Source: Escherichia coli
GTDB lineage: Bacteria > Pseudomonadota > Gammaproteobacteria > Enterobacterales > Enterobacteriaceae
DNA: 64,000 nucleotides
Reading direction: 5' to 3' (one strand)
NCBI RefSeq assembly: GCF_003019035.1
Contig: NZ_CP027448.1
Shown in pieces: positions 14,194 through 54,375 of this stretch (positions are counted from its first letter, which is position 1; each line of letters opens with the position of its first letter). The translations under genes were made by a program, and so were the position numbers. The notes below the pieces were generated by a model. The model was not told the DNA's origin. It saw nothing but the letters and a program-made list of their open reading frames with translations, and made no database searches.

Positions 14194-14925
14194 TCAGAGA
14201 ATATTTGCGATTGATTTGGCCAGCTGGTCTTCGAGAACAGGCTTCGCCTCTTCAAATTTCAGGTTAACCTTGTTCGCACTGGAGACCACACGGGTCTGAT
14301 ATTTATGCTGGTTACCTGTTTCAGTACTGGTCTGAATTTTCGCACCTGAAGTGCCCTGACGCAGGGCGGCAACATTATCTGTTGTCACCGTTGTCTTAGT
14401 ACGCTCTGCAATCTGCACATCCGTGATCATGGTATAGTTCACATCTTCCACCATCGCATCTGCAGCCATACCCACCAGACCAGCAGCAAGGCCCACACCG
14501 AGTGTGGCACCGGCAGAATTGGAATTATATCCGGTAATACCGGCACCTAACGCTGCACCAACAGCTGCGCCTTCATAACCACGGTTCAGCCATCCCTGAG
14601 ACTCCCGCAGATCCATCTTATCGGCCTTCAGCACATTCGCCTGAATCCAGTAGTAGGCTTTATCCGGAGAAGTCACCACCTGATACCCTTTTGCTTTCAC
14701 AGCATCAGCAATTTTGCCCTGCAGCCCACTCATGTCTTTATCAGACGTGTTTTTGATCTGCAGAAATACCGTGCGTTCGCTGGCGGGTTCAAGCCAGATG
14801 GTCTCACTCATCTGGGTCTTCACCTCAAGGTTACGCTTCTTGATTGCTGTGCTCATCGCACCACACCCTGAAAGGGCCAGAGTGGAACTGACCAGTGCAA
14901 CCATCATCAATTTTTTTGTTTTCAT
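14194..14925 (-). CDS. traT: TraT surface exclusion lipoprotein
   Basis: 243-aa [50 protein letters not shown]..., matching F TraT. Confidence 0.95.
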
Positions 14926-35784: not shown

Positions 35785-36471
35785 TTATTTAACACCATAA
35801 AATTCACGAATTATACTTAATAGCGAATCTATTTCTCCTTTATATATACATGACACTCTGAATAAATCAAAGTGTTCAAAAAACTCTTTTATTTTCCGTT
35901 TAACTGGTTTAATTCGATCCTCAGATGCTCTGTCTGTAATACCCAATTCTCTGGCAATTGTTGCGTGACCAACACCCAGCATATAAAAAGAGAAAACAAC
36001 CAATGTTCCTGGAGAAAGATCATTCCATATCGTTAATTGACCAGAAGTATTTGTATTACTTACACTCTGATTTAACGCAAAAAATGGATAATCAGGAAAC
36101 GGATTAATTTGCCATAAAACAACAGATTCGTCATTATAAAAAGAAACATTCTCCATCCTTATCTGATAGATTTCGCCATGAAAATTAAAACGACGACAAA
36201 ATGCAGAGCCATGTCCAAGAGCCTGGCATTCCAGTTCAAGTGATGAAAGAAAAATTTCAACCTGCAGACGTATATAACTCTCTCCGGATAAAGGTTTATC
36301 TTCTCTGGAAAAGAGTTCAATAAAAGCCCCATTGGCATAAAGGATTTTCCGGTTTTTGTTACGGACACAAACCGGAACGGGAGAATTTCTGTAGATATTC
36401 TGAACGTTAAGGATGTATTTATTTACAGATTGACTGTTTAGTGGCCTTTCTCTACGATCCAGCGCACACAT
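35785..36471 (-). CDS. traJ: TraJ transfer-operon transcriptional activator
   Basis: ORF contains [38 protein letters not shown]..., which I recognise as an R100-type TraJ allele; GGAGG Shine-Dalgarno before the ATG at 36471. Confidence 0.8.
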
Positions 36472-36540
36472 AGGAACCTCCAGTAAGGATTCTATGGACA
36501 GTCGATGCAGGGAGTTACAGCTCCCTGCATCGGCGATTTT
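36466..36540 (+). ncRNA. finP: FinP antisense RNA
   Basis: Plus-strand sequence antisense to the traJ RBS and start, with stem-loop gatgcagggag-ttacag-ctccctgcatc followed by ggcgatttt; ends approximate. Confidence 0.55.
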
Positions 36541-36660
36541 CAGTTTCAATTTTTAACGTGGTATTAACCACATAATTAATATACTAATTATCTGACGTAT
36601 TGTCATCTTTTTGAATCATAAAAATTCTTATATTTGAACCAACTCAAACTTCATTTTCAT

Positions 36661-37044
36661 TTATTCATCATCATTTTTTGGGAAAAACCGGTCCATCTCA
36701 ACAGACACTTTCTCTCTGATATCGTCAACCATACTGGCATATTCAAACTTCGGGTTTCCGGAGACATGAGGACTGAGAGACTCAATACCTAAAATTTTCG
36801 CTACTGATGATTGTGTTTTTACAACGCATTCAAGAAGTAATTTATTAAACTCAGTCTGATTAAATGCAGACTCTTTACGCTCCATCTGAGCGTCATATAC
36901 ACGGAGCCCTAATTCAAGAAGCATTGAAGCAGTTCCTGAAAGGCTTATATCTTTATCTCTTGCTCCCTCCTGACGACGCTTTTCAACAATCATGTTAATT
37001 TTTTCATGAACCTCATTACTGATATACAGATTTACTCTGGCCAT
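36661..37044 (-). CDS. traM: TraM relaxosome protein
   Basis: 127-aa ORF MARVNLYISNEVHEKINMIVEKRRQEGARDKDISLSGTASMLLELGLRVY..., matching F-like TraM. Confidence 0.9.
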   Translation of the reverse strand: MARVNLYISNEVHEKINMIVEKRRQEGARDKDISLSGTASMLLELGLRVYDAQMERKESAFNQTEFNKLLLECVVKTQSSVAKILGIESLSPHVSGNPKFEYASMVDDIREKVSVEMDRFFPKNDDE

Positions 37045-37120
37045 AAGACAGTACCTTTTAGATTCTGAAATAAGAGTTTTATTTCATCTACTCATAGTAT
37101 GGTCTGAAAAAATAAGAGCA

Positions 37121-37176
37121 CCCCTAGCAGCGCCCCTAGGGGCATACTATAAAAAAACGCACGGCGCTGCTAGGGG
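37121..37176. promoter_or_regulatory. 14-bp inverted repeat pair flanking a palindromic core upstream of traM; candidate TraM autoregulatory/relaxosome binding sites
   Basis: cccctagcagcgcc (37121..37134) and its exact reverse complement ggcgctgctagggg (37163..37176), with cccctagggg at 37133..37142. Confidence 0.4.
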
Positions 37177-37220
37177 CGGCCCTAATATATCCAAATGTTT
37201 TTCATGAAAATTGTCAAAAC

Positions 37221-37272
37221 TGACCCTAACAAGGGTCGTCATAGGGTCGTTATAGGGTCGTCAACGACCCTA
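37221..37272. promoter_or_regulatory. Three phased direct repeats (agggtcgt at 11-bp spacing) plus an inverted copy; candidate accessory-protein binding sites in oriT
   Basis: agggtcgt at 37232, 37243 and 37254, followed by caacgaccct; spacing of one helical turn. Confidence 0.4.
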
Positions 37273-37344
37273 TTTAATAATGTAAAATAAATTAAAATAC
37301 ATTATTTAGAACATAAACTAATGATTTAAAAAACAAATCAGCAA

Positions 37345-37400
37345 AAACTTGTTTTTGCGTGGGGTGTGGTGCTTTTGGTGGTGAGAATCACCAACCTGTT
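37345..37400 (+). other. oriT: oriT nic region (F-type relaxase site)
   Basis: tttgcgtggggtgt|ggtgcttttggtggtgag matches the F-family nic motif as I remember it, with the adjacent inverted repeat ggtggtga/tcaccaacc; lies between traM and gene X. Confidence 0.8.
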
Positions 37401-37458
37401 GAGCCTTTTTGTGGAGTTGGTTAAATTATTTACGGATAAAGTCACCAGAGGTGGAAAA

Positions 37459-37968
37459 ATGAAAAAATGGATGTTAGCCATCTGCTTGATGTTTATAAAT
37501 GAGATCTGCCATGCCACTGATTGCTTTGATCTTGCAGGCTGGGATTACAAAATAGATCCTGATTTACTGAGAGCAATATCATGGAAAGAATCCCGTTACC
37601 GGGTTAATGCCATCGGTATTAATCCGGTAACGGGATATGGCAGCGGACTGATGCAGGTAGATTCCCAGCATTTTAACGAACTGGCCCGCTACGGAATTAA
37701 GCCAGAACATCTGACAACAGATCCCTGCATGAACATTTATACCGGTGCTTATTATCTGGCAATAGCATTTAAAAAATGGGGCGTCACCTGGGAGGCCGTT
37801 GGTGCATACAATGCAGGATTCAGGAAATCCGAACGCCAGAACCAGAGACGTCTTGCCTACGCATCAGAGGTTTACCGGATTTATACCGGGATAAAAAGCA
37901 GTAAAGGTATCCGGCTTCCGGCCACGAAGAAATCACTTCCGGAAATTAACAGCGTGCAGAACAATTAA
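37459..37968 (+). CDS. Gene X / Orf169 lytic transglycosylase
   Basis: ORF contains [57 protein letters not shown]..., matching F orf169; start set at the internal Met, track ORF starts at 37366. Confidence 0.9.
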
Positions 37969-38220
37969 TCTTACAGATATTGTCAGATACCGGTTATGCC
38001 GCAAAAGCGGCATGGAAGGCCACACACAAAAATATCATATGAGTGACAATACTGACTGGCCGAAGCCCCGCGAAGAGGTAACCCATCTTATATATACCCG
38101 GTAACTGCGCAGCCTCCTGCCAGACCATTTTTCGCGGGCACAATATTTACAGACAACCGGAAATCCGGTCGATGAAATTGAGGTATATCAGACGACACAG
38201 CAATGCCGAAAAATGATAAT

Positions 38221-38260
38221 ATAAGTAAAGCCCCGAAAAATTTTTCGGGGCTTTACTTAT
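38221..38260. terminator. 40-bp perfect palindrome, candidate bidirectional terminator between convergent genes
   Basis: ataagtaaagccccgaaaaa|tttttcggggctttacttat; GC stem with A/T runs on both sides. Confidence 0.6.
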
Positions 38261-38378
38261 ATTATCATGACTTCCACTTTCTGAACTGTTCGGCAATCAC
38301 CCATAACGCCTTGTTGATTCTTATATCACCATCAATACCTGTAATGGCTCTTGTCCTGGTATTTTTCCCGGAGGCACT

Positions 38379-39167
38379 TCACCCCGATAATCCACCTTTT
38401 ATCATATTCTCCTGAACCCGCTGCCAGGTTGTCCAGAGATCGTTCTGTTTGTCTTCCCGACGACGGGGAGTAATTATCTGTTCAGGTGTCACTGGCGTTT
38501 TATTTTCATCTTCATACCTGACCATCAGTGCAGCTCTGCCAAATAAATGTTGCTCGTCACTGTTAAGATGAATTTCTTTCATCGCCTCCATATTATCAGT
38601 GACCTTATCAAAGACACCGAGCACTTCATACGCTCCCTCGATAACCTGCCCGACAATATCACCTTTATGTGGAACGCGGATTTCGCCAAAATTATTTCCG
38701 CACACCAGGCCATTTGTGCAGACAAAACGAAAAATTCCGGGGATCATCTGATAACTGGATGAACCATCATGTGAATTAAGCAGGATAATTTCAGGAGCTT
38801 CCTGTCCGTTAATATGCCCTTCCCTGCGAAGACGTAACATATGTTTACTGTATTCGCGACGTCCCAAATCACGAACCCGACTCTGACAGGCAAAGAATGG
38901 CTGGAAACCTTCATCACGTAACTTATTGATGATATTGATTGTTGGAATATACGTATAACGTTCACTCCGGGACTCATGTTTATCACCGGAAAATACCGAA
39001 GGCACGAACTGCATTAATTCATCATCCGTTAAAGGACGTTCACGGCGGATGGAATTATACCGACCAAAACGGGAAGCTAATCGCATAACAGCTACTCCTT
39101 TATGAAAGAATAAATTTAATAAAAAATTTTTCCGCTTAATATCATCCCCCCTGATCTCCATTAACAA
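38379..39167 (-). CDS. Leading-region protein, DUF932-like
   Basis: 262-aa ORF convergent with gene X, the position of F orf273; family assignment from memory only. Confidence 0.6.
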   Translation of the reverse strand: MLMEIRGDDIKRKNFLLNLFFHKGVAVMRLASRFGRYNSIRRERPLTDDELMQFVPSVFSGDKHESRSERYTYIPTINIINKLRDEGFQPFFACQSRVRDLGRREYSKHMLRLRREGHINGQEAPEIILLNSHDGSSSYQMIPGIFRFVCTNGLVCGNNFGEIRVPHKGDIVGQVIEGAYEVLGVFDKVTDNMEAMKEIHLNSDEQHLFGRAALMVRYEDENKTPVTPEQIITPRRREDKQNDLWTTWQRVQENMIKGGLSG

Positions 39168-39204
39168 GATTGCAACAATCAGGAGGGATATTCATCACAT
39201 CCGG

Positions 39205-39492
39205 TCAGCAGATCGCCCGGATATCGAGGCCGGCACGCTTAATCTGACGCAGGAACTGTTTGAAGTGATCGGCTTCCGCAATGTTGATATGGCGGAACTG
39301 CTTATCCACACCCTGACTGAGCGCGTAGCTATAACTGAAGGCCATCTTTTCCGGGTGGCTTTTGCGATATTTTTTCAGCTCAGTCAGGCTGCTGAATTCC
39401 AGGACGTCCCACTCTTCCCTGGTGTTTTTTTTCTTCCCGGCAACAAGAAGCGTGTACGACGCGGTGTTAACGTGGATATTTCGGGTACTCAT
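39205..39492 (-). CDS. Leading-region protein, DUF905-like
   Basis: 95-aa ORF directly downstream of repeat copy 1, with GGAG Shine-Dalgarno; family assignment from memory only. Confidence 0.55.
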   Translation of the reverse strand: MSTRNIHVNTASYTLLVAGKKKNTREEWDVLEFSSLTELKKYRKSHPEKMAFSYSYALSQGVDKQFRHINIAEADHFKQFLRQIKRAGLDIRAIC

Positions 39493-39514
39493 CCTGCTTT
39501 CTCCTCTCTCTGGT

Positions 39515-40142
39515 TTTCAGCCCCCATCATCTTTTGAGTTTCGGGAGCCGCGGTTTTGACGTTTTGCGGGGACCTGCCTTTTGTTCCCTCCGGTATTCAC
39601 CATCACCTTTTTGAGAACCTTCGCCGCAAGGGGCATCACTGCCACGGACGGAAACGACTGTCCGGGGGCAGACCGCAAAAGTTTTTGCCTGCTTTTGAGC
39701 AAAAAGTTTTGCGGGATGTACATTTCACCCCTGGACTGGCGGAGACGGTTGTGGCTGTATCAGCCCCCGGCGACAGGGGCTTAAACAGGTGAATGGCACC
39801 GGACAGAACAACGGGCAGGGACCCGCCGCAACGACGTGAAGCGCGGTTTGCGAAACGGCGTTGCCCCTTACATCCCGGCGGCCTTTTGCCGGGATGCCGG
39901 GAGCGCAGGCCACGGCGCGACAGAGGCGGCGCGACCGGAACGGTCGCTGCAAGCCCGGGGTTTTCACGCATCGGACCGTAGCGACAGCCCGAAACCGCGC
40001 CAGCGGGTTCGGCGGAGACTGGCAGGTGCGCCAGCAGCTGCCTGTCGGAGTCGGGCCTGACGACCGGATGCCGCCAAGCAGCCGGGAGCCGAAGGTGCGC
40101 CCGGCAGATAGGACAACACTGCAGTAGTCAGAATCAGAGCAG
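39515..40142 (-). repeat. Frpo/ssi-like structured repeat, copy 1
   Basis: About 620-bp GC-rich block shared with 44936..45565 and 48265..48880, each directly upstream of a minus-strand gene set. Confidence 0.7.
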
Positions 40143-40413
40143 AAAGAAAAAGAGAATAATCACAGGGAAGGTGATGTGATTTCTGACAGGCCATAACCAG
40201 AGAAGGCGGGGGAAAAGAACGGGCGCCGCAGGCGCGCGTTCATCCCCGTTCCTGAAGGGAAACGACCTTCCTGAAGTCAGGTTGTTCATGCCCGTACAAC
40301 ATCAGCAAGGAGAAAGGGGCTACCGGCGAACCAGCAGCCCCTTTATAAAGGCGCTTCAGTAGTCAGACCAGCATCAGTCCTGAAAAGGCGGGCCTGCGCC
40401 CGCCTCCAGGTTG

Positions 40414-40572
40414 CTACTTACCGGATTCGTAAGCCATGAAAGCCGCCACCTCCCTGTGTCCGTCTCTGTAACGAATCTCGCACAGCGATTTTCGTGTCAG
40501 ATAAGTGAATATCAACAGTGTGAGACACACGATCAACACACACCAGACAAGGGAACTTCGTGGTAGTTTCAT
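40414..40572 (-). CDS. hok: Hok-family membrane toxin
   Basis: Manual minus-strand translation gives [52 protein letters not shown]. Confidence 0.9.
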
Positions 40573-40630
40573 GGCCTTCTTCTCCTTGCGCAAAGCGCGG
40601 TAAGAGGCTATCCTGATGTGGACTAGACAT
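40418..40630 (-). CDS. mok: Mok (modulation of killing) overlapping reading frame
   Basis: 70-aa ORF overlapping hok in another frame, the canonical hok/mok arrangement. Confidence 0.65.
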
Positions 40631-40670
40631 AGGGATGCCTCGTGGTGGTTAATGAAAATTAACTTACTAC
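40600..40670 (+). ncRNA. sok: Sok-like antisense RNA (approximate)
   Basis: Inferred from hok/sok architecture, antisense to the mok start region; boundaries not resolved. Confidence 0.3.
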
Positions 40671-40851
40671 GGGGCTATCTTCTTTCTGCCACACAACACG
40701 GCAACAAACCACCTTCACGTCATGAGGCAGAAAGCCTCAAGCGCCGGGCACATCATAGCCCATATACCTGCACGCTGACCACACTCACTTTCCCTGAAAA
40801 TAATCCGCTCATTCAGACCGTTCACGGGAAATCCGTGTGATTGTTGCCGCA

Positions 40852-41571
40852 TCACGCTGCCTCCCGGAGTTTGTTCGGCACCATCCACCGCTCCATCTCA
40901 CGGACAGCGTGACCGGCCTCTCTTGCTGCAAGACTGGCTTCCGCAATAACCTGCCAGAACGGCATATCCTGCCACTGCCAGCGTTCCATTCCGGCCAGTG
41001 ACGGAAAACGCTCGCCCCACTGCCAGAACAGGGTTTCCAGGTCATGCTCTGCCACCCGGTCACTCCAGCGTGCATGCCAGCTTCCGACTGTTTCCGGCGA
41101 ATGGAATGCCAGTTCGATTTCAGCCTGAGCGACCAGCGCCTGGTACGCACGGGCTTTCTGCTCTGCCTCCCTCGCCTGCTGGCGGCTGTACTTCTGCATG
41201 ACCAGCGCGGATTTATGGCGACTGCGTTCCCTGACACGAAACCGCACCGACGGGAACAAGCGCTCTGCTGCATCACCGGGAAGGGGAAGGAGGCAGACCT
41301 CGCCCTGTGTTTCAATCAGCACATCGATGGCATACAGCCACTGAAGACGGTTGCCGTGCAGTTCTTCTGCGGTCAGGGACGGCATGAAAAATCGCAGGTC
41401 AGACAGCGATATCCTGCGGCTTCCGTTCAGACAGCGGAAAAACGCCCCCGCATACGGATATTCAGCCAGCGTGTTACCCTGATGGCGGCGTTTTTCGGTC
41501 TCCGCCACCGCCCGCCATACGGCCTGTTGCTCTGTGCTGAGGGGAACCAGTGCCTGTGAACGTGCGCTCAT
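40852..41571 (-). CDS. psiA: PsiA
   Basis: 239-aa ORF directly downstream of psiB, as in F-like leading regions. Confidence 0.85.
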
Positions 41572-42005
41572 GCCTGACCTCCTTCCGCCATCAGGATATG
41601 GATGATGTCACTGACGCTGTACCCCTGCGCGTCCAGTGACGCCGCCAGTGCCAGTGAATGGCTGACGGCTTCCGGTGCAAACCGCCGCTGTACCTGAACC
41701 ACCGCAAACGGCTCACCACCGGCATTCACCAGAACCAGCACCCAGACCTGAGAGACATCGCCCGGTGAACATAACGCCAGGTGAAAACGTTCGTGGGCAG
41801 GCGTGAAACGGACCTGGACGGGGAAAAATCCGCCAAACTCGCTGCCGTACTCGCCGTTCATCGTCCAGTTGTCCGGCGCATCCAGCTCCCGCATCACGGC
41901 GTGTGTCAGCTCACGGCGTTCATCACTTCCGGCAGCCCGGATATCTTCATATTCCTGTGTGTTCATGGTCTGTAATACATTCAGGGTCAGTTCAGTTTTC
42001 ATCAC
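41568..42005 (-). CDS. psiB: PsiB (inhibitor of RecA/SOS induction)
   Basis: 145-aa [67 protein letters not shown]..., matching PsiB. Confidence 0.9.
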
Positions 42006-42056
42006 GGTATCTCCCTTGCTGCCGCCCCGTCTCCGGCGGGGCGGTGTGGTTGTTCA

Positions 42057-44015
42057 TCAGGCGGCATCAGCCAGGTTATCGGTGCGTTCAGTGGCATCCG
42101 TCTGTGGGCGTGGTGCACACATCCAGCCAGGCACCCAGCGGTTGTCTTTCATATGGTGCTCTGCATGTTCAGCCGCATCGCCTTTCTTCATCTTCTCCGC
42201 GTCCCGTGCAGCACCGGACAGTCCTGCCTCATTCAGGGCTGCGATAATCTGCGGCTTTTTCAGGTGTCCGAAGAAGTTTGCTTTTGTCGGCTGCCACCAG
42301 TCGCGCATGTGAAAGCCGATGGCGCTTTCCAGCGAATCCAGCGGACTGCGTGACGTGTGACCATACTCACGGGTCTGAACACCGTGGATGCTGCATGCAG
42401 TGCAGAAACTGAGCAGGGACAACAGAACCTCCTGGCTGAGTGACAGGAACGTCGTCATATCCCGTGCCCATCCCTCCGGTAACAGGGCTGCAAGACGGGC
42501 TTTTTCTGCCATCATCGCCATGAATGCGGCACCGTCCTTCCCCGATGGCGCATCGCTGGTCAGCGCATAATGCTCACATTCCAGACGAATTTTTGCGGGA
42601 TTGCTGTACGCCCCGCTACCAAACACATTCAGGCAGAGCGTCCATGCCAGCAGTGCCAGGGATTTGTCCGGCTGTTGCATAAGCGCCGCCTGGACTGCCA
42701 GCGTGCGCTCTGAGGACATTTTCGTCAGCAGTGGCAGACTGATTTCCTCCACGGAGGCTTTCTCCTGCACCTGTTCCGTGTGGTCAGCGTCGTCAGCCAC
42801 ATCATCCTCACTGCGTAACTGCACACCACGCTGGACACATACGTTTCCATAACGCCAGGACACCACCACGCCACTTCCGGCACGCATCTCCGGCGTCCAC
42901 GCCCTGACCTTCGCCATGCAGTCAATCAGCTTCATTTCTGCTTCCAGCAGGTCGGATTCCTCACACTGGTTTTCCAGCGCATCGTAACGTGCCATCAGTT
43001 CGTTCAGGCGTTCTTCTTCTGCCTCCGTCAGCACCGCTTCCGGCTCCGGCAGACTGCGGTATGTTCCGGCATCCTCACGGCACTCACCAACGGCCTCCAT
43101 GCGTCCGGCACACCATCCCCAGCCCTCGGCTTCCCGAAGGTGTTCAGCAACAGCCTGGAGTTTTTCCAGCAGGGCAGCATCGAGCGCAACACAGTCCACA
43201 TAGCCACCCTCGTCGTCGCTGAACAAATCGGTGCGCAGTTCATCTGGCGAGAAGGCATCAGCCCCCACAAAGCGGAATTTAGTGTTCCCCACCACCGCCA
43301 CTTCACTTTCGGTCACCAGACGACGAATGGTCTGTACTCCCGGTTTTCCGCCCCATCCCGACTGACAGGCAGCTTCAAACACCTGCACCTGACGCGCGGT
43401 GTCGTTCTCCAGCGCCAGCGCCTGACAGTGCTCTGTGGTGATGCGGTCTTCTGCCAGCGCATCGAGGATGACAGGCGCAAGGTCTGCCAGTTTCAGCATT
43501 CGCTGAACGTGGCGGGGTGAATAGCCCAGCAAATCACCGATTTGTGCAGGCGTTTTGCCTTCCTGCGCCATTGCACGGAATCCGGCAATCTGTTCGGCAG
43601 GGTGCATATCCCGACGATGACCGTTTTCAGTCATTGATGCGGCAGTCGCCAGTTCCTGCGGAATAACCTTCACGCGGACAGGCCAGTCAGCAGGAAGGAT
43701 GTTGCGCTCTGCCAGCATGTTGAGTGCTGCCAGTCGGCGACCGCCTGCGGCGACACCGTAACGGTCACCTGGCAGGGCATGAACAACCAGATTCTGCAGC
43801 AGGCCGACGCCCTTAATGGACTCTGCCAGTTCGCTGACGGACTCCGCAGAATACGGCACCGTGCGCACATTCAGCGGTGACTTAATCAGCGAGGCCAGCG
43901 GCACGCTCACTTCAGCCGTCTCCGCCAGCAGGGCCGACAGGACTGTTTCCTGCGTTTTTGCAGGTTTACGGCTGGATTTACGCTCCGTTTTTACCTTAGA
44001 CTCTGTAACTGACAT
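42057..44015 (-). CDS. ParB-like nuclease-domain protein of the leading region
   Basis: Large ORF with N-terminal ParB-like region (GLLQNLVVHALPGDRYGVAAGGRRLAA); start set at MSVTESKVK, track ORF starts at 44111. Confidence 0.8.
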   Translation of the reverse strand: MSVTESKVKTERKSSRKPAKTQETVLSALLAETAEVSVPLASLIKSPLNVRTVPYSAESVSELAESIKGVGLLQNLVVHALPGDRYGVAAGGRRLAALNMLAERNILPADWPVRVKVIPQELATAASMTENGHRRDMHPAEQIAGFRAMAQEGKTPAQIGDLLGYSPRHVQRMLKLADLAPVILDALAEDRITTEHCQALALENDTARQVQVFEAACQSGWGGKPGVQTIRRLVTESEVAVVGNTKFRFVGADAFSPDELRTDLFSDDEGGYVDCVALDAALLEKLQAVAEHLREAEGWGWCAGRMEAVGECREDAGTYRSLPEPEAVLTEAEEERLNELMARYDALENQCEESDLLEAEMKLIDCMAKVRAWTPEMRAGSGVVVSWRYGNVCVQRGVQLRSEDDVADDADHTEQVQEKASVEEISLPLLTKMSSERTLAVQAALMQQPDKSLALLAWTLCLNVFGSGAYSNPAKIRLECEHYALTSDAPSGKDGAAFMAMMAEKARLAALLPEGWARDMTTFLSLSQEVLLSLLSFCTACSIHGVQTREYGHTSRSPLDSLESAIGFHMRDWWQPTKANFFGHLKKPQIIAALNEAGLSGAARDAEKMKKGDAAEHAEHHMKDNRWVPGWMCAPRPQTDATERTDNLADAA

Positions 44016-44079
44016 ATATTTCTCCTTTGACCGGGGTGGTTGTATGTCTGCCGGACGTGATCCCCGTCCGGCACCTCTC

Positions 44080-45565
<1,486 letters not shown>

Positions 45566-45667
45566 CAGGAAAAAGAAGAACAGTAGCAGTAGCAGTAGCA
45601 GGAACAACAACATCAGTAACAGACAAATGACAGGCATGAAGAAACAGAAGCCCCCATCAGAACGTCC

Positions 45668-45700
45668 GCGTAATGAAAGGGGCGGCGCGTGAGCGCGGCC
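45668..45700. terminator. GC-rich hairpin downstream of the methyltransferase gene
   Basis: gaaaggggcggcgcgtgagcgcggcccctttc inverted repeat. Confidence 0.4.
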
Positions 45701-45777
45701 CCTTTCAGCGCCACCGGCGCGCGGTCTTTTCCCGGCGCGGGCAGACGGGCATTTATCCTCCCGCCTGCCCGGCGTCT

Positions 45778-46341
45778 TCAGGCACGCAGACGAATAATCA
45801 TCGTCGGGACATCGGTATAAGCAAACGTGCCGCGCGGCAGCTCCTCGCGGACGTCAGAAAACGGTAACAGCTTCTCCTGCTGGCGTGGTCCGTTGAGACA
45901 GACGGCGACCAGCACGCCACCCGGACGCAACAGGGAAAAGGCCCGCAGGATATGCCGGATATCCTGCCCGTGGCTGAACGGCGGATTCATGATAACCCGG
46001 CTGTAATACTGCGCCGGCTGCCATTCCATGAAGTCGCCACACTGAACCCTGACACCGTTAAAATTTTCCCGCAGATACCGGACCAGCCCGCTGTTGATTT
46101 CCACCGCATCACACATGGCCCCCGGCGCGGTATCCCGAATCGCCCGCAGTATGGCCCCGGTGCCGGCAGAGGGTTCCAGAATGTGATCACGGTTGCTGAT
46201 CTCCGCCAGCATCACCAGGCGATCACAGACCGGGGCAGGAGTCACAAAAAGCTGAGATTCAGCCCGGATTTCAGCAACCGGCGCGGCGTTATCCAGCCTT
46301 GCGCGCATCAGCCGGATACGTTCTCTTAACTGACTGTGCAT
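45778..46341 (-). CDS. SAM-dependent methyltransferase (NPPF motif)
   Basis: 187-aa ORF with motif I-like EPSAGTGAI and motif IV NPPF. Confidence 0.75.
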   Translation of the reverse strand: MHSQLRERIRLMRARLDNAAPVAEIRAESQLFVTPAPVCDRLVMLAEISNRDHILEPSAGTGAILRAIRDTAPGAMCDAVEINSGLVRYLRENFNGVRVQCGDFMEWQPAQYYSRVIMNPPFSHGQDIRHILRAFSLLRPGGVLVAVCLNGPRQQEKLLPFSDVREELPRGTFAYTDVPTMIIRLRA

Positions 46342-46388
46342 GTCATTATCTCCGTCATCCCCCGGGGATTTTCCCGGGGGGATATACC

Positions 46389-47750
46389 TTATTTCTGTGG
46401 AATTTCCGTGATTTTCATGTCGGTGATATACACATTCACCAGGCGGAAATTATTGTCCATTGTGCGGCGGTAGCGGTATGCCCCGTGGTCTTCTGCTTCT
46501 GCCACACTGCGCACGGCCTTACAGTCCCGGGGCAGGGCGGCCCACTGTGCCTTTGTCATTTCCCGGAAACCTTCCCCCGGATAGTTGACTACCGGCGGAC
46601 GCTTCGCGGCCTGACTGGCGACGGCAGCCTCTTCTGCCGATGGTGCTTTGTAGTCCGTGATGCGATCGGGCGTCACTTTCATCGTGCCGCTGTACCCGAG
46701 AAAACTGTAATTTGGCGTTGTGACTGAACTCACCACCCCGTTGCTTTTGTTCACACGGATGATGGTCAGCCACTCGCCCCGGCTGAAAACCTGTCCGCCC
46801 GGCTCAAAATCCTGTGTCCGGGTAACCACGCCGCCGCTTTCGTCCAGCATGGCACGCTCATAGATCAGGCGGTTCTGATAGTGGTTAACCCAGCGTTGCT
46901 GACGCTGGATCTGCCGTTCATGACAGCGGATCGCAATTTCGCGGGCCTGCTCCGTGGTGATGATGTCATCATCCAGGGCCGACCATAACGATCGACTTCC
47001 TTCATACTGGCTTTTTTCTGCCGGGCGCGGATACGTATCCAGCGGGAAACAGGCGCTAATATGGTCATGACTGCTGATGAGTTTTGCCATATTCAGATCC
47101 AGCGATTCAGCCCGCCACATCGTCAGATATTTCTGCGACTGTGCGATGGTCTTTTCAGCCTTGCGCAAATCAGCTTCGATTTTTTTGATACGACGCCAGC
47201 GAACGTCCGGACGTTCTTTATACTTCGCGTGAAGCAGTGCCGACCGCGCGCGTTCTTCCCAGTATTCCGCACGTTCAAAGAGCATCACGGCACGTTTCAT
47301 GCCGTTTTCAATACGCTGCGCATCACGACGGGCGCGGCGTTCGCTGTGATGCCCCACAAGAATGGGCTGACCGGGCGGGATCATCGCGGCCAGTCTTTCC
47401 ACTTCATCAAGTGCCTGTGCGGATTCACTGGCCCGCTTTCCGCTGTATCCGGTAAACCGCTCCGCCCGTGCTTCCTGACGTTCAGCGAGCGTGCTGTCTT
47501 CATCCTCAATCTCTCCGGCAAGTGAGAGGAGCACGTCTTCCCGGCCCGGTGTCCAGGCTGGCGCGACAAACAGCGCCTGTTTGGGTGCCCAGCGAAAACC
47601 GGCATCATGCACTTTTTTATACGTCTCCGGGTCGAGGCGTGACGCGGCATACAGGCGCAGTTTGTTGTCATCCGGTGAGTAGGTCGCGCGGTACATCTGC
47701 ACAGGGCTGGCGGCTTCCGGGGCGGTCATGGTGATGGCTGCTAATGTCAT
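46389..47750 (-). CDS. Leading-region protein, DUF3560-like
   Basis: 453-aa ORF in the operon between repeat copy 3 and the methyltransferase; family assignment from memory only. Confidence 0.6.
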   Translation of the reverse strand: MTLAAITMTAPEAASPVQMYRATYSPDDNKLRLYAASRLDPETYKKVHDAGFRWAPKQALFVAPAWTPGREDVLLSLAGEIEDEDSTLAERQEARAERFTGYSGKRASESAQALDEVERLAAMIPPGQPILVGHHSERRARRDAQRIENGMKRAVMLFERAEYWEERARSALLHAKYKERPDVRWRRIKKIEADLRKAEKTIAQSQKYLTMWRAESLDLNMAKLISSHDHISACFPLDTYPRPAEKSQYEGSRSLWSALDDDIITTEQAREIAIRCHERQIQRQQRWVNHYQNRLIYERAMLDESGGVVTRTQDFEPGGQVFSRGEWLTIIRVNKSNGVVSSVTTPNYSFLGYSGTMKVTPDRITDYKAPSAEEAAVASQAAKRPPVVNYPGEGFREMTKAQWAALPRDCKAVRSVAEAEDHGAYRYRRTMDNNFRLVNVYITDMKITEIPQK

Positions 47751-47801
47751 AAAATGTTCTCCTTCCGTCTGTTGCCGCCCCTCGCGGGGCGGCTCACCTC
47801 A

Positions 47802-48032
47802 TCAGTTAAAAGCGCGTTTCAGTTCGAGTGTGCGGAGCACCTGCCCGAAGGCCGTGTTTTTCATGGCGGGGATGTGTACACCACGCCCCCGGTGAAAACT
47901 CCGGGCTATGTGTCGCCCGAAGGCTTTCAGCACGGGGTCAATTTCCGGCGCGGGGATGTCTTCGCGTCTGAAACGGGGATGACGGCGGGGCTTTACAGCC
48001 GCTGCGGAAGGTGAAACAATACTTACCGTCAT
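47802..48032 (-). CDS. Small hypothetical protein (76 aa)
   Basis: First ORF downstream of repeat copy 3, co-oriented with the operon; no family recognised. Confidence 0.4.
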   Translation of the reverse strand: MTVSIVSPSAAAVKPRRHPRFRREDIPAPEIDPVLKAFGRHIARSFHRGRGVHIPAMKNTAFGQVLRTLELKRAFN

Positions 48033-48264
48033 AAATGAAACTCCTTATGACTGTTGAATGGAACCGCAGAAACTGCTCGAACAGTTTTTGCGGTGTGGAT
48101 TAAGCAGGTCCTCCCCGGCCTGCTTTTTTCATATCTGCGTCTGACGTTCTCCGGTGTTTTCCTCCTTCTGTTCCTGCGTTCTCATTACCTGCCAGCCGGA
48201 TGACTGACAGAACAAATAAATGCGTATTGCCGGAGCCTGAAATAAATCCTGATTTTTAAAGAAC

Positions 48265-48880
48265 ATCACCCGTTGAGTTTCGGGAGCCGCGGTTTTGACG
48301 TTTCGCGGGAACCTGCTGCTGTATTCCCTGTGGTATGAACTTCACCCGTTTGAGAACCTTCGCCGCAAGGGGCATCACTGCCACGGCCTGACGCACCTGT
48401 CCTGGGCAGAACGCAAAATTTTTTACCGGGTTTGGGGTAAAAAATTTTGTGGGCTGTTCATTTACCCTGGACAGTCAGTGCGGCAGGTTGTGGCTGTATC
48501 AGCCCCCGGCGACAGGGACTCATACGGGTGTGTGGCACCCGGCAGGCAATGAGCAGGGACCCGCCGCAACGACGGAGAGCGCGTGCGCGAAACGGCGTTG
48601 CCCCTTACATCCCGGCGGCCTTTTGCCGGGATGCCAGGAGCGCAGGCCACGGCGCGACAGAGGCGGCGCGACCGGAACGGTCGCTGCAAGCCAGGGGGTT
48701 TCACGCATCGGACCGTAGCGGCAGCCCGAAACCGCGCCAGCGGGTTCGGCGGAGACTGGCAGGTGCGCCAGCAGCTGCCTGTCGGAGTCGGGCCTGACGA
48801 CCGGATGCCGCCAGGCAGCCGGGAGCCGAAGGTGCGCCCGGCAGACAGAACAACACTGCAGTAGTCAGAATCAGAGCAGC
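48265..48880 (-). repeat. Frpo/ssi-like structured repeat, copy 3
   Basis: Third copy of the repeat; 5' end slightly diverged. Confidence 0.7.
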
Positions 48881-49072
48881 AGATAAAGGAACAACAACAA
48901 CATCAGGAACAGTTCCACAACATAAGAAAGAAACACTCCTGAGTCAGACACATCACAGACGGGAAGGGTAACGGGCGACGCGCCAGCGTGGCCCGCTTCC
49001 CTTCCGGCAGGCGTCAGCCTGCCAGGGGTTTTCGCGCGGGCTGACAGGCGGCCTCCACCGCCTGCCCCTGTA

Positions 49073-49264
49073 TCACCTGTTTCTGCTGCCCTGTAAGATG
49101 TAGTGACCGCCCAGGAAAACCGCCTGCTGATTCGCCACAAAATCGCAGATTTCATCAACAATCTGCGCGGTGGTGAGCGGTTTCTGCCCCATTTCACGAC
49201 GCCGCGCATTAATCACGGCCCTGTAATTACGCAGAATTTCGCGGGTTTCTGTGCTGATATTCAT
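49073..49264 (-). CDS. Small hypothetical protein (63 aa), start overlaps upstream gene
   Basis: Start overlaps the stop of the 140-aa ORF upstream (ATGA); no family recognised. Confidence 0.45.
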   Translation of the reverse strand: MNISTETREILRNYRAVINARRREMGQKPLTTAQIVDEICDFVANQQAVFLGGHYILQGSRNR

Positions 49265-49683
49265 GACATCGTCTCCCCGTCCAGCGCCTGTAACACAACG
49301 TCCATTGCTTCGCGTTCCTCCCTGACGAATGCGTCACCGTCGCCCCCGTTCTCACTCCCGACGGCATACAGGCGCTTCATTTCACTGCCTGCCAGCGCCA
49401 TCACTTTTTCCAGCATCACCGCCGGGACTGTCACATGACGGCTGGCGCGCTTTTCTTCCATCAGTTCACGAACAACGTCGTGAACAACGCTGACATCCGC
49501 ACCATGCTCAAAGGCATCGTCCAGCCGCTGCATGACGGTTTCCAGCTCATCGTCTGCCAGACTCCAGTCCTGAGCTATGTGGCGCACATCCCCACGGGTC
49601 AGCACCACGGCAAAAACGCATTCACTGTCCGGCACGTCTGTATCCAGCACTTCGCGGATAATTTCTTTAACAGTACAGTACAT
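49261..49683 (-). CDS. Leading-region acidic protein, possibly DUF1380-like; paralog of 51390..51824
   Basis: 140-aa ORF MYCTVKEIIREVLDTD...VTVPAVMLEKV... sharing the MY.T N-terminus and VTVPA motif with the 144-aa ORF at 51390..51824. Confidence 0.6.
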   Translation of the reverse strand: MYCTVKEIIREVLDTDVPDSECVFAVVLTRGDVRHIAQDWSLADDELETVMQRLDDAFEHGADVSVVHDVVRELMEEKRASRHVTVPAVMLEKVMALAGSEMKRLYAVGSENGGDGDAFVREEREAMDVVLQALDGETMS

Positions 49684-49729
49684 GTTCTCGTCTCCTTTAC
49701 AGGGGCGGCATTGCCGCCCCGTCCGTTAA

Positions 49730-50155
49730 TCAGTCCAGTGCCGCGTAAATCGCGTTACATTCGGGGTGAAATTCGATGTGGCTCCACAACTGCGCATCGC
49801 GCATCCTGTACAGGTGAGTCAGTCCTGCATCACCGCTGTCGTGGTACAGCCACAACTGACGGTTAATCACAAGGGAAGTCACAATGATGCCTGCGGCATC
49901 GGCGCTGACCGTACGGTCAAACCAGTTTTCACCGTTCACCATGTGGAAACGGTCGCCATCCGGCATCATGTAACCGCCACCGTCCGGCAGGCGGATGAAG
50001 TGCCAGAATCCGCCTTCATATTCCGGCATCATTTTTTTCGCCAGCGCGTACACAGATGCCTCGGCATACAGAAAATCATTGCCAAACAGATACAGCAGAA
50101 AGGAGAGACGGTCGCATTCTTCAACATTCAGAGTGACAGGTTTCGCATACTGCAT
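49730..50155 (-). CDS. Putative antirestriction protein (ArdB/KlcA-like)
   Basis: 141-aa ORF from [41 protein letters not shown]... with GGAGG Shine-Dalgarno; family call from memory, moderate certainty. Confidence 0.55.
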
Positions 50156-50567
50156 GGGATTTCCTCCGTTGTTCACATATTCCGCGACACCGGGCGGTGC
50201 CGTGCCTCCATAAAAGCCGGGCGATAAGGCGGGGATGCACAGGGCGCAAGGGAAGCCGCAGCCTGACGCACACGGCTGACGGGAGTTGGAGGGGGAGACC
50301 GCGAAATCTGAGCGGGTGAACGACCGGAAAATCACGGCAGACGGGAAGGAGGGACCGGGTGACCGCAGCGTTCATTTTACCCTTGCATCCCCGCCAGCCC
50401 GGCTAAGATGGAGGCACGGCACAGCCCGCACACGACACGGTGGCCACATAACTGAAAACCCACAAGGCCATGCCTGCATGGCCGGGTAAAGCGGAGCCGG
50501 CGGCGACTTCCTTTGTGCTCTGTCCGGGGACCGGCAGAAAAAAAAGCGGGGATTTTCCCCGCCATCA

Positions 50568-51344
50568 TCAGCCCCTGATTTTTGCCAGGGCATCCGCCAT
50601 GCTGCGGATTTCGGCCCGGGCTTCCCGGACAACTTCCCGCAGAACACCACGGTCAAACCTCTGGCGGGGCGGTTCATCCGGTATACGCAGCACATCGCAG
50701 GCCAGCCCACTGGACAGGATATGTTCAATACAATCGCTGACCAGATACATTTCCACCGCCGAAAAACGTGCGCCCCGGTTCAGGATGGCATCGAGCACCA
50801 CGGGCAGGTTTTCGTCGTCCTCATCGAGCCAGCAGGGGTGATCGCTTTCCTTCACGACCAGGCGAAAGCGGCGCGTCTGGCGGGTCAGTAACGTCTGACC
50901 AGTGGTGGTCAGCGCCGCCCGGATACGCCGCGTATCTTCTGCCACCCGGCAACTGACACTGCGTACCGCATCGCGCACCGCCGCAAGTACAGCCCTGATT
51001 TCGTCTTCGGTCAGCCATTCACCGGCATACGGAAAAGACACCTGCGTTCCGTCTGCCGGAAGTACCGGCAGCGACTGCCACTGACTGCCGGACAGTACAA
51101 GTTCCTCCCCGGTTCCGGTCAGTTTGTGAATGGCGGAGGCCAGGAGCGGCGGCAGTACGCCGCCGTGACGGTTTATAAGTAACGTCGCCAGCTGGGGCGC
51201 ATCCAGCCGCACGTAAATGCTGATCCAACCCGGATAGTTCGGGTTTCGCTGGTCAACATCAGTCTCTTCCGGCCAGCCCTGCGCCAGCAGCAGGTCGCGG
51301 GCGTGACGACAAATCAGTGCATTCAGCGTTGTGTTTTCGTTCAT
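50568..51344 (-). CDS. Hypothetical leading-region protein (258 aa)
   Basis: Long ORF co-oriented with neighbours; no family recognised. Confidence 0.65.
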
Positions 51345-51389
51345 GATTAATCGTTCTCCCTGTATCGCCGCCCGGAGGCGGCGATAACA

Positions 51390-51824
51390 TCAGTCGTTTT
51401 CGTGTGTGTTGTTTTTCAGCAGGCTGCGGGTCTGATTAACCACCGCCTGACGGCGGGTGACGCATTCCGGGACGGCGAGGCCGTTATCACGGGCGGCCCA
51501 TTCACGCTTCCACAGTGCCTGTTCAGCGGTCTGAATCAGGGACGCCAGCAGTTCAGCAGGGACGGTCACCTGGCGGTTTTCACTCACGTTGCTGATAATC
51601 TCCATCGCCGCACAGGAAGAAATACCGGACTCAGTCCGCTGGTCTTCCGGGATGTCCTCCAGCCGCGCCAGGACGGTCCTGATTTCATGATCGGACAGGG
51701 AAATATCCATTCCGTCAGCGAGGGCCTGAGTTTCTTCCGGGGACCAGATAACCAGCATCAGCGGCGTGTCTCCCGGATACTGCGCTGCCAGCTCCCGGCA
51801 CAGCGTTTCGCATGTTCCGTACAT
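51390..51824 (-). CDS. Leading-region acidic protein, possibly DUF1380-like; paralog of 49261..49683
   Basis: 144-aa ORF MYGTCETLCRELAAQYPGDTPLMLVIW...VTVPAELLASL... Confidence 0.6.
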   Translation of the reverse strand: MYGTCETLCRELAAQYPGDTPLMLVIWSPEETQALADGMDISLSDHEIRTVLARLEDIPEDQRTESGISSCAAMEIISNVSENRQVTVPAELLASLIQTAEQALWKREWAARDNGLAVPECVTRRQAVVNQTRSLLKNNTHEND

Positions 51825-51837
51825 TCTCGTCTCCTTC

Positions 51838-52059
51838 TCAATCTTTGAAGCAGGAATCCAGTTCCAGAATTTCGGTATACGCCTCCATAAACAGGCGATT
51901 GGCGCGATACAGCGTCTGGCGTGTCAGGCGTTCAACAAGCACATCGGAATCAAAGCGACAGCGATGCTCCATATCGTTCAGCCTGGCCCGAAGGTCACAC
52001 ATGGTGTTGGCCACCTCCGCCACGTCGGCGCGAAGTTTTTCGTGTCCGGCATAGTTCAT
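51838..52059 (-). CDS. Small hypothetical protein (73 aa)
   Basis: ORF abutting the methyltransferase stop at 52060; no family recognised. Confidence 0.45.
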   Translation of the reverse strand: MNYAGHEKLRADVAEVANTMCDLRARLNDMEHRCRFDSDVLVERLTRQTLYRANRLFMEAYTEILELDSCFKD

Positions 52060-52743
52060 TTACGCAGCCTCCGGTTCAAACCAGTTATCATTCGCGGCCC
52101 CCTGCTGCATGGCCCGTTGCACGGCGGCCATTCGTTGCTGTCCGGCACGGTGATACTGTTCAAGCAGCTCGATACCGATATACCGGCGTCCGGACTGAAG
52201 GGCGACCACGCAGGTTGAGCCGCTGCCTGCAAACGGGTCCAGCACAATCGCGTTCGGATGTGTGAAGCTCTCAATCAGTGGTTGCAGGCTGGTAACGGGC
52301 TTTTCCGTCGGGTGATGGCGGTTGCCTGAATATTTCCAGCCCAGCACGTCCGGCAGCAGGTTTTGTGGCAGACGTGGACGGCCTTTTGCCAGGATGTAGG
52401 CGCATTCGTGGCGATAGCCCACATATGCGGCCTTCGATGTGTAGTTTTTGGTGAAGACCAGGTGCTCGACCACACTGAATCCCGCATTTTTCCAGGCGGC
52501 CATAAAGCGATCGACGCGGTTCCAGCCATAGAGGCTCACCATCAGCGCGTCTTTTTTCAGCACACGGTACATTTCATTACAGGCCGGTTGCAGCCATTCA
52601 TCGGTTTTATCACCCGCGATGGTACGTCCCTGACGGTCACGAAAACCGACGAGGTACGGCGGGTCAGTCAGCATGAAATCAATGGCGTTATCAGGGATAC
52701 GGGCCATAACATCGATGCAGTTACCGAGGACAAAACGGGACAT
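52060..52743 (-). CDS. Orphan DNA methyltransferase (beta-class N6A/N4C type, DPPY motif)
   Basis: 227-aa ORF with DPPY early and FAGSGST later (motif IV before motif I), YhdJ-like order; no adjacent restriction enzyme gene. Confidence 0.85.
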   Translation of the reverse strand: MSRFVLGNCIDVMARIPDNAIDFMLTDPPYLVGFRDRQGRTIAGDKTDEWLQPACNEMYRVLKKDALMVSLYGWNRVDRFMAAWKNAGFSVVEHLVFTKNYTSKAAYVGYRHECAYILAKGRPRLPQNLLPDVLGWKYSGNRHHPTEKPVTSLQPLIESFTHPNAIVLDPFAGSGSTCVVALQSGRRYIGIELLEQYHRAGQQRMAAVQRAMQQGAANDNWFEPEAA

Positions 52744-53126
52744 AACAACGCTCCTTCTTTCACAGAGGGCACCGGGAGGGCCCCCTGTGGTGCCCGTTCC
52801 CCGCTGCCTGTGGGCTGTTCACCGCGTCCGGTAACTGGTCAGGCCGACCGTGGAATACCGCAGCCGTCGTCTTTTTGACGGCAAGGTTATGCCGCGAAAG
52901 CGGCTTGAAGGGCGTTCATCAGAAAAGGGCGACGGGCTGGCGTACACTGTCACCGACGCCAGCCGGGAGCGGTAAAAGCGACCGTTCCGTGCCCGCCGGA
53001 CGCGGGACACTGACCACAGGCAGCGTTCCTGCCGCGCCGCGTCAGCCGGCGCAGTAAAAAGAGGAGCACGGCGACATCCTTTGTCGGAAAAGAAACGGGC
53101 GGTTGCCCGCCCGTCTCCGTCATACT

Positions 53127-54053: not shown

Positions 54054-54375
54054 GGGAATTCTCCTCTCACATGCGGCCTCCATCAGGCCGTGCCGCACCT
54101 GTAACCGGGCGACCGCATACGAATGCAGGTGCGGCCCCGAAGCCGCAGCGCGTGGAGGAGGAACGACGAAACGTGACCGGGTGAGGAGGCCGGCGACAGC
54201 GACACACTTGCATCGGATGCAGCCCAGTTAACGTGCCGGCACGGCCTGGGTAACCAGGTATTTTGTCCACAGAACCGTGCACAAAATGCTGTGGATAAGC
54301 TGGACACAGCAGCCCACAGCAGGCATACAGCCACACCCTCAGAGAATTGAACGTTTTTTAGCCGCAACAATGACA

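Follow-up and report, generated by a model that had tools for sequence, protein, structure and literature searches.

Three leading-region repeats of an IncF-type Escherichia coli plasmid join a single-strand promoter of the Frpo/ssiD family to a conserved structured domain

Introduction

The closest described relatives of the DNA elements reported here are the single-strand promoters in the F plasmid's leading region, where Frpo1 lies before ygeA/ygeB and Frpo2 before ssb-yfjA-yfjB-psiB-psiA, and where deletion of either abolishes early expression in transconjugants (Couturier et al., PMC9849209). Frpo1 is also called ssiD, a sequence that originally came to light as a single-strand initiation signal (ssi); in vitro, Frpo transcripts can serve as primers for DNA synthesis (reviewed in PMC7690428). 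A Frpo fragment gives anti-CRISPR protection only when it is on the transferred strand of the leading region (Samuel et al., PMC11541004), and start sites on pESBL were determined through 5' rapid amplification of cDNA ends by Wen et al., who named the class-1 single-stranded DNA (ssDNA) promoters (PMC12672017). Leading regions with three Frpo-containing repeats are known from ColIb-P9 and pO26-CRL125, and gene cassettes are exchanged at such repeats in IncI plasmids (PMC3817090). At another F element, the ssp2 hairpin, synthesis of the complementary strand is stalled and the period of Frpo2-driven expression is lengthened, and early conversion downstream of Frpo1 and Frpo2 is rifampicin-sensitive in vivo (bioRxiv 10.64898/2026.01.09.698686). 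Here we analyse three direct repeats in a stretch of 64,000 nucleotides of Escherichia coli DNA (contig NZ_CP027448.1); this whole stretch is called the window.

The original prediction, made from the letters of this DNA, had taken three blocks of roughly 620 bp for single-strand promoters of the Frpo/ssi type. Homology to F ssiD, leading-region position, location on the transferred strand and the predicted hairpin fold bear this out for the gene-proximal ~350 nt of each repeat (module A); the remainder of the ~635-nt unit is a separate structured domain (module B). With a probability of about 85%, each repeat is a composite non-coding unit, made of an ssDNA promoter and a distal domain, that acts on the single-stranded transferred strand in the recipient. 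The mechanism is borrowed from experiments on F and ColIb-P9, and its application to this plasmid is based on homology, strand, position and fold.

Promoter hairpins on the transferred strand

The window is assigned to an IncF-type conjugative plasmid because Rfam models of the traJ 5' untranslated region (UTR) with FinP, of CopA and of sok match in it. The sequence GCGTGGGGTGTGGTGCTTT, which we take to be the nic sequence of F oriT, is present on the plus strand, which is therefore read as the transferred strand; the placement of the traJ 5' UTR and FinP fits the same orientation. On this evidence the transferred strand would enter the recipient 5' to 3' from about position 37368 toward higher coordinates. 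All leading-region genes lie on the minus strand, so that the transferred plus strand is their template. The repeats start 2.1, 7.6 and 10.9 kb 3' of nic (copies 1, 2 and 3, respectively).

A repeat search and a three-way alignment agree on exactly three direct copies of ~635 nt each, at coordinates within ~10 nt of those first proposed. The search returned two abutting families of three members each, which together define the units, and neither BLAST nor nhmmer found a fourth copy in the window. The repeats are GC-rich, as had been noted (62-63%, against 52% for the window). Their description as near-identical holds for the distal 280 nt, which are ~97.5% identical among all three copies, and for the gene-proximal 350 nt of copies 1 and 2 (95.4%), but not for the same part of copy 3, which is ~80.5% identical to either.

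In all three copies, F ssiD/Frpo (D90178; Supplementary Table 2 of Samuel et al., PMC11541004, was the source of the Frpo/ssi sequences) can be aligned over ~350 nt without a change of orientation, with the identities given in Table 1. The ssi1-3 sequences of ColIb-P9 align only over the ~90-115-nt apex region, at 80-87%. On the plus strand each unit is predicted to form an imperfect hairpin of ~320 nt, with z-scores of -8.1, -8.6 and -9.3 against dinucleotide shuffles; the minimum free energies of the 661-nt units range from -178 to -188 kcal/mol, and none of the shuffles was equally stable. The strand to be folded had originally been given as the minus strand. This has to be reversed: it is the plus, transferred strand that matters, and in 10 of 10 homologues its hairpin is 7-19 kcal/mol stabler than that of the minus strand. 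Hairpins of like architecture are seen in homologues from F, IncI/K, Citrobacter, Lelliottia and Klebsiella plasmids, and the RNAalifold consensus of 12 hairpin homologues contains 52 pairs, 14 of them compensatory, together with many conserved G.T pairs. Taken together, these results support the assignment of module A of each repeat to the class-1 ssDNA promoters of the Frpo/ssiD family, an already known feature.

An AT-rich apex, an unpaired TNCATTT and a hexamer TGGAC(T/A/G) in the upper 3' arm are common to the three copies and to diverged class-1 homologues. About 17 helical positions past the hexamer, an internal loop places ATCAC opposite TGTATCA or TGTCTAT, in the three copies and in the class-1 homologues examined. 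Two pairs of promoter elements can be read from this structure. Candidate 1 uses TGGAC(T/A), which matches 4-5 of 6 positions of the -35 consensus and lies 17 helical positions before the internal loop with CTGTATCA or CTGTCTAT, the AT-rich apex being upstream of it; candidate 2 is TTGAGA-17-(C/T)ATCAC on the 5' arm. The Frpo fragment that functions in vivo keeps the duplex partner for candidate 1 only (Samuel et al., PMC11541004). We favour TGGAC(T/A) as the -35 element for that reason, and because the class-2 hairpin is analogous and uses the same arm; the -10 element would then be pre-melted in the internal loop. Transcription would run from the internal loop down the 5' arm into the genes.

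Some observations speak against so simple a picture of module A. No promoter came up when the linear sequence was scanned with a strict sigma-70 consensus, and the -35/-10 assignment is a choice between two candidates. The statement that the repeats end about 20 bp before the first gene is right for copies 1 and 2, with 21-30 nt between the unit and the start codons at 39492 and 44914 (the latter, of ssb, fixed by an NCBIfam alignment); it fails for copy 3, where 231 nt separate the unit from the start of a 76-amino-acid (aa) open reading frame (ORF) at 48032. The Rfam antisense RNA AS-pc01 matches in this gap. The spacer also holds a mini-ORF of 10 codons (MKKAGRGGPA) close upstream of the 76-aa ORF, and as a whole it looks like a leader-plus-antisense control layer over the single-strand promoter.

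Between the Frpo hairpin and the distal domain, each copy has a small hairpin, ATCCCGGC-GGCCTTTT-GCCGGGAT. IncI copies have an unrelated CACACC-GT..CA-GGTGTG there, and other sequences occur elsewhere; the position of this linker hairpin is conserved and its sequence is not.

A structured domain beside each promoter

Both the deposited ssiD and the published 328-nt Frpo stop at position 39870 of copy 1, so that the next 280 nt lie outside published Frpo. This distal part is more conserved than the hairpin: between IncF and an IncI-gamma/K plasmid it is 92-96% identical, whereas the hairpins align over ~100 nt at ~77%. Homologues of the domain (GC content 73%) were collected from contigs of one genome per species, from PLSDB plasmids of Klebsiella, Enterobacter and Salmonella, and by a pattern scan of metagenomes. 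All annotated loci among them are leading regions, by traM and oriT, and the element is antisense to the leading genes.

Applied to 19 sequences, RNAalifold gives a predicted fold of seven helices with 49 pairs. A closing stem, P1, surrounds the whole; within it lie the hairpin P2, the long-range stem P3, which encloses a 2-bp helix and the hairpins P4 and P5, and the hairpin P6. In these 19 sequences, 19 of the 49 pairs are changed on both sides and 97.0% of the cells are paired, a level reached by none of 500 shuffles; slid controls gave at most 6 such pairs. With 40 representatives less than 95% identical to each other, the pairs changed on both sides rise to 31 of 49 at 95.5% of cells paired (again 0 of 500 shuffles as high), and the slid controls gave 4-12 pairs with 24-42% paired. 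The distal domain is a conserved structured non-coding element, and this conclusion is strongly supported. Nowhere in the window did a repeat match a family of Rfam 15, STAXI included, at the gathering threshold on either strand. A known RNA family was also sought for copy 1 (39480-40200) at E values up to 10, and rejected: all matches were at chance level, with E of at least 0.5. We found no description of the domain in the searchable literature, which is no proof that it is undescribed.

The domain is tightly coupled to single-strand promoters. Where enough flanking sequence was available, 126 of 134 domain copies were immediately preceded, on the 5' side in the transferred strand, by a hairpin recognisable as an ssDNA promoter; four others adjoin other long hairpins that end at a gene start, and the last four look rearranged. 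The joined hairpins belong to at least four sequence families (F, IncI, Citrobacter and the Salmonella 'Frpo*' of Samuel et al.), and the genes after them include ssb, DUF905, ParB-like, DUF932, DUF3560 and RadC-like genes. In PLSDB, more than 5000 records match the repeats, typically in three places per record.

In several Klebsiella and E. coli plasmids (L002 9782/12125, L006, L010) a group II intron lies ~9 nt 3' of the domain in plus orientation, at sites that correspond to the window positions listed in Table 1. Its reverse transcriptase has the domains RVT_N, RVT_1, maturase and HNH. A hairpin-targeting class C intron was considered as independent evidence for a fold of the plus-strand DNA and was discarded, because the HNH domain shows that the intron is not of class C; its insertion therefore says nothing on DNA structure.

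Table 1. Positions in the window of the repeats, their parts and neighbouring features
Feature	Position	Strand	Remarks
CopA	624-713		Rfam match
traJ 5' UTR and FinP	36465-36573		Rfam match
oriT nic-site sequence, F type	37357-37375	plus	single exact match to GCGTGGGGTGTGGTGCTTT; 0 expected by chance
ssiE homologue	37963-38151	plus	97.9% identity to F ssiE
DUF932 protein	38379-39167	minus	gene set after copy 1; label from homology with the annotated F region
YgeA-like 95-aa ORF	39205-39492	minus	gene set after copy 1
Start-peptide/hairpin-base motif	39461-39492; 39550-39562; 44973-44985; 48289-48301		
Repeat copy 1	39513-40150	plus	638 nt; Frpo hairpin and distal domain
Class-1 ssDNA promoter, copy 1	39521-39870	plus	96.6% identity to F ssiD; fold z -8.05
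Stems of hairpin, copy 1	~39538-39858	plus	
AT-rich apex, copy 1	39675-39711	plus	
Bulge TACATTT, copy 1	39719-39725	plus	
TGGACT, copy 1	39732-39737		-35-like
Internal loop, copy 1	39634-39640; 39755-39762		CATCACT opposite CTGTATCA
Linker hairpin, copy 1	39872-39895	plus	
Multi-helix domain, copy 1	39913-40091	plus	consensus fold, covariation
P1, copy 1	39913-39918; 40086-40091		CGGC.C with G.GCCG
P2, copy 1	39926-39954		GCGACCG-GAA-CGGTCGC
P3, copy 1	39969-39978; 40052-40062		CATCAGACC with GGGCTCGACG
P4, copy 1	39989-40012		CCGAAACC/GGGTTCGG
P5, copy 1	40017-40046		variable sequence
P6, copy 1	40064-40085		
Positions corresponding to intron sites	~40100; 45523; 48837		intron present in other plasmids
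sok	40570-40746		Rfam match
psiA	40852-41571	minus	gene set after copy 2
psiB	41568-42005	minus	gene set after copy 2
ParB-like	42057-44111	minus	gene set after copy 2
DUF905	44080-44319	minus	gene set after copy 2
ssb	44375-44914	minus	gene set after copy 2
Repeat copy 2	44936-45573	plus	638 nt; Frpo hairpin and distal domain
Class-1 ssDNA promoter, copy 2	44944-45293	plus	95.7% identity to F ssiD; fold z -8.55
Internal loop, copy 2	45057-45063; 45178-45185		TATCACT opposite CTGTCTAT
TGGACT, copy 2	45155-45160		
Linker hairpin, copy 2	45295-45318	plus	
Multi-helix domain, copy 2	45336-45514	plus	consensus fold, covariation
Class I S-adenosylmethionine (SAM) methyltransferase	45778-46341	minus	gene set after copy 3
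DUF3560	46389-47750	minus	gene set after copy 3
76-aa ORF	47802-48032	minus	gene set after copy 3
AS-pc01 antisense RNA	48027-48128	plus	Rfam match
Spacer before copy 3	48033-48263		contains the 10-codon mini-ORF
Repeat copy 3	48256-48887	plus	~632 nt; start 48252/48264 in repeat search
Class-1 ssDNA promoter, copy 3	48264-48607	plus	diverged type; 83.4% identity to F ssiD, 92% to F Frpo2; fold z -9.3
Internal loop, copy 3	48373-48379; 48494-48501		CATCACT opposite CTGTATCA
TGGACA, copy 3	48468-48473		
Linker hairpin, copy 3	48609-48632	plus	
Multi-helix domain, copy 3	48650-48828	plus	consensus fold, covariation
Class-2-type hairpin	50163-50517	plus	86.7% identity to candidate Frpo' 4 (Samuel et al.); fold z -4.4

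Proposed mechanism and competing explanations

On the model known from F and ColIb-P9, the transferred strand would fold back into the ~320-nt imperfect hairpin and so mimic duplex promoter DNA. Host sigma-70 RNA polymerase could bind this hairpin and transcribe toward lower coordinates into the adjoining gene set; the same transcripts could prime complementary-strand synthesis, and hairpin and promoter would vanish once the region turns duplex. We infer that the promoters of this plasmid would likewise be active only in the single-stranded state and give early, transient expression, as do F Frpo1/Frpo2 and the class-1 promoters of pESBL. Module B is a separate, autonomously folding domain that is conserved in leading regions across the Enterobacterales and, in the transferred strand, always lies 3' of the hairpin, so that polymerases moving 3' to 5' on that strand would meet it just before the hairpin. 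These would be RNA polymerase coming from the operon before it and the DNA polymerase that synthesises the complementary strand. The compact GC-rich junction could stall or insulate them and thereby keep the promoter hairpin single-stranded, and active, for longer. By analogy with the roadblock at F ssp2, we infer that the domain may be a barrier or insulator of single-stranded DNA on the transferred strand. More broadly, the distal ~180 nt may represent an undescribed class of structured ssDNA that sets the length of the promoter's single-stranded phase, either because it stalls or insulates against polymerases or because it recruits a particular host or plasmid protein, a tentative proposal to which we give somewhat less than even odds.

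This proposal has to be set against several findings. A truncated Frpo fragment without module B worked in vivo (PMC11541004), and F has only a degenerate module B, yet its Frpo1 and Frpo2 work; promoter activity as such thus does not depend on module B. The conserved unpaired bases of the domain hint at specific recognition, for which a simple barrier would have no use. The choice of the folding strand is also less clear for the domain than for the hairpin. In favour of the plus strand, the fixed structure contains 64 G.T against 18 A.C cells on the plus strand (18 against 13 pairs), folding of single sequences makes the plus strand the stabler one in 40 of 40 cases with DNA parameters and in 35 of 40 with RNA parameters, and the known plus-strand Frpo hairpins show the same preference for plus over minus. 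This evidence is statistical, however; the plus strand is G-rich, which alone favours its folding, and an A.C mismatch in P3, found in 38 of the 40 representatives, would be a G.U pair in RNA of minus sense. Neither strand is consistently favoured by consensus energies: the alignment called A4 gave -55.5 for plus and -48.5 for minus, and the 40-sequence alignment with RNA parameters gave -38.7 for minus and -33.5 for plus. For this reason the strand call is made from the variable G.T and A.C counts and the energies of the individual sequences, according to which the domain probably folds as the plus strand, that is, as transferred-strand DNA.

A rival view is that the domain works as RNA, either as a minus-sense structured 3' end, terminator or processing site of the upstream operon's mRNA or as a plus-sense small RNA antisense to that 3' end. 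Such a role would suit a structure in which 44 of 49 pairs are predicted on both strands, which sits exactly between operons and near which there is plus-strand transcription (AS-pc01); the P3 mismatch and the slightly better minus consensus energy point the same way. A minus-sense terminator should, on the other hand, be followed by an intrinsic-terminator tail, and there is none after the domain: the two weak terminator-like sites found, against 1.6 expected, do not lie directly after it. The absence of an Rfam match on either strand, the excess of variable G.T pairs and the single-sequence folds also tell against RNA, and the fact that the domain is so tightly coupled to ssDNA hairpins unrelated in sequence points to a role in the single-stranded phase. 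An RNA function thus seems to us doubtful rather than improbable. The latter word better fits the possibility that the repeats are mainly priming sites, with gene expression secondary and with the domain as a site of primosome assembly or primase recognition. The history of ssiD, the priming by Frpo transcripts in vitro and the rifampicin-sensitive early conversion downstream of Frpo1/Frpo2 all agree with priming, the presence of a second ssi (the ssiE homologue) is in keeping with it, and a compact domain fold would stay free of SSB; nothing, however, ties the domain to PriA or DnaG, and F converts efficiently with a degenerate one.

That the repeats are remnants of insertion sequences or other mobile elements, or genes of small proteins, is barely conceivable. 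Such an origin would agree with their dispersal, their length of ~635 nt, their place at the borders of gene cassettes, the 'hypothetical proteins' that automatic pipelines annotate within them, and the group II intron that lies beside the domain in some plasmids. Against this stand the lack of any NCBIfam match for the seven ORFs inside the repeats, domain lengths that fall into all three classes modulo 3 (16, 13 and 11), 1-nt indels between IncF and IncI copies, substitutions that compensate for each other in base pairs, and upstream start codons that are not conserved between copies. The absence of family matches and of a conserved frame and the pairing-compensatory substitutions led us to reject both variants, in agreement with the original view that the short internal ORFs are not coding. 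No transposase fragment was found when the seven ORFs were compared with NCBIfam; the search did not extend to terminal inverted repeats or target duplications. A composite of ssDNA promoter and distal domain on the transferred strand thus remains the explanation that we prefer.

Comparison with F, IncI and other systems

The F promoters Frpo1 and Frpo2 (also ssp1a/ssp1b; Masai & Arai 1997; PMC9849209; PMC12672017) resemble those described here in sequence (83-97%), strand, position, hairpin and downstream genes, and F (NC_002483) is syntenic with the window at ~94% identity over 36453-39963, 40121-45386 and 48947-54336. It carries two class-1 copies at syntenic places, before ygeA and before ssb. 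The plasmid studied here differs by a third class-1 copy before an extra cassette and by a distal domain of the full ~180 nt. F lacks the stretch from copy 2 to copy 3 (45574-48255), which is the cassette of the 76-aa ORF, DUF3560 and the methyltransferase. Since synteny with F is lost precisely where copies 2 and 3 lie, the repeats are the borders of an exchangeable cassette, and the sequences suggest that it was gained or lost by recombination between them. The Frpo2 hairpin of F is nearer to copy 3 (92%) than to copy 2 (88%). Of module B, F retains no more than the initial ~92-100 nt, after which comes a shortened variant (GGGATGGAAGCCCGCCAGGGCGGAGAC...; F 9175-9266 and 14563-14655). The GGGATGGAAGCCCGCCAGGGCGGAGAC variant is also present in the Salmonella 'Frpo* 6', so that there are at least two forms of the region 3' of the P2 hairpin.

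The ssi1-ssi3 elements of ColIb-P9/IncI1 (Bates 1999, via reference lists) and the repeats R1-R3 of pO26-CRL125 (PMC3817090) are alike in being three direct repeats of the leading region, each before a gene set. IncI-type repeats have the same hairpin architecture and a distal domain that is 92-96% identical, and they serve as recombination points; they differ in that the hairpins align only over ~80-115 nt around the apex, at ~75-80%, and in their gene sets (ardA and others). The model that we propose for the domain is F ssp2, or 'Frpo3' (bioRxiv 10.64898/2026.01.09.698686; 10.1101/2025.04.03.647016), a structured element of the transferred strand that delays duplex conversion. Unlike ssp2, which is a long hairpin promoter in its own right, the domain has the form of a multi-helix junction without promoter-like features, and stalling is proposed for it by analogy.

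Two further systems invite comparison with module B. The STAXI motif (Rfam RF01728), reportedly described by Weinberg et al. in 2010, is said to be a candidate structured ssDNA or RNA near genes for ssb, topoisomerase, antirestriction and integrase proteins. It resembles the domain as a conserved non-coding structure that is tied to ssb and antirestriction genes of conjugative elements and suspected of acting as ssDNA; it differs in architecture and host range, and cmscan gave no match to it, either in the window at the gathering threshold or in copy 1 at E values up to 10. The single-strand origins (sso) of rolling-circle plasmids are orientation-specific structured ssDNA elements of 150-300 nt with conserved unpaired bases, at which host RNA polymerase primes. 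Homology between these and the domain is not established, the TAGCG-like pentamer that they have in common being too short, and replicon type and hosts differ.

Gene sets and neighbouring elements

The gene sets that follow the three repeats on the minus strand are listed in Table 1. The set after copy 1 had been described as a DUF905 set; it consists of the YgeA-like ORF and the DUF932 protein, and DUF905 belongs to the ssb set. Homologues of the genes after copy 3 carry annotation in the plasmid L002. The ssiE homologue lies between oriT and the first leading gene set.

Upstream of a gene set with an ArdB/KlcA-like antirestriction gene, there is a further hairpin, of class-2 type. It has TTGCAT...TAAGAT on its 3' arm, and no distal domain follows it. 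By its sequence, it appears to correspond to the F class-2 promoter ssp2/'Frpo3'.

The first genes after many single-strand promoters begin with a common peptide, M-x-T-(R/Q)-N-(I/V)-x-V-N-T-A, which here is MSTRNIHVNTAS at 39492. The peptide is kept even where the remaining protein sequences are unrelated (L089, L092, L117, L129). On the transferred strand, the DNA encoding it, GCGGTGTTAACGT, resembles GCGGTTTTGACGT, a motif in the basal 5' arm of every class-1 hairpin. The common start peptide may be a signal at the level of DNA or mRNA rather than a protein motif.

Implications

The promoter finding is correct and already known, and the distal domain is the less ordinary part of the repeats. 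Three Frpo copies are ordinary in themselves: by this known device, F-like and I-like plasmids express ssb, psiB, antirestriction and methylase genes in the first minutes after entry, while the complementary strand has yet to be synthesised. What is gained for this plasmid is a correct annotation, with three plus-strand promoters in place of ORFs and a whole cassette bounded by two of them. The domain gives one of the clearer covariation signals obtainable from plasmid non-coding DNA. It is found in more than 5000 plasmid records, many of them from clinical isolates, and is joined to every type of single-strand promoter examined for domain coupling (the class-2-type hairpin of this plasmid apart). 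Since F has only a degenerate version, studies that focus on F may have overlooked it. If the domain does act as folded ssDNA, it would be among the few natural cases in which a complex DNA fold has a biological role, and it would add a component to the model in which early plasmid expression is timed against duplex conversion.

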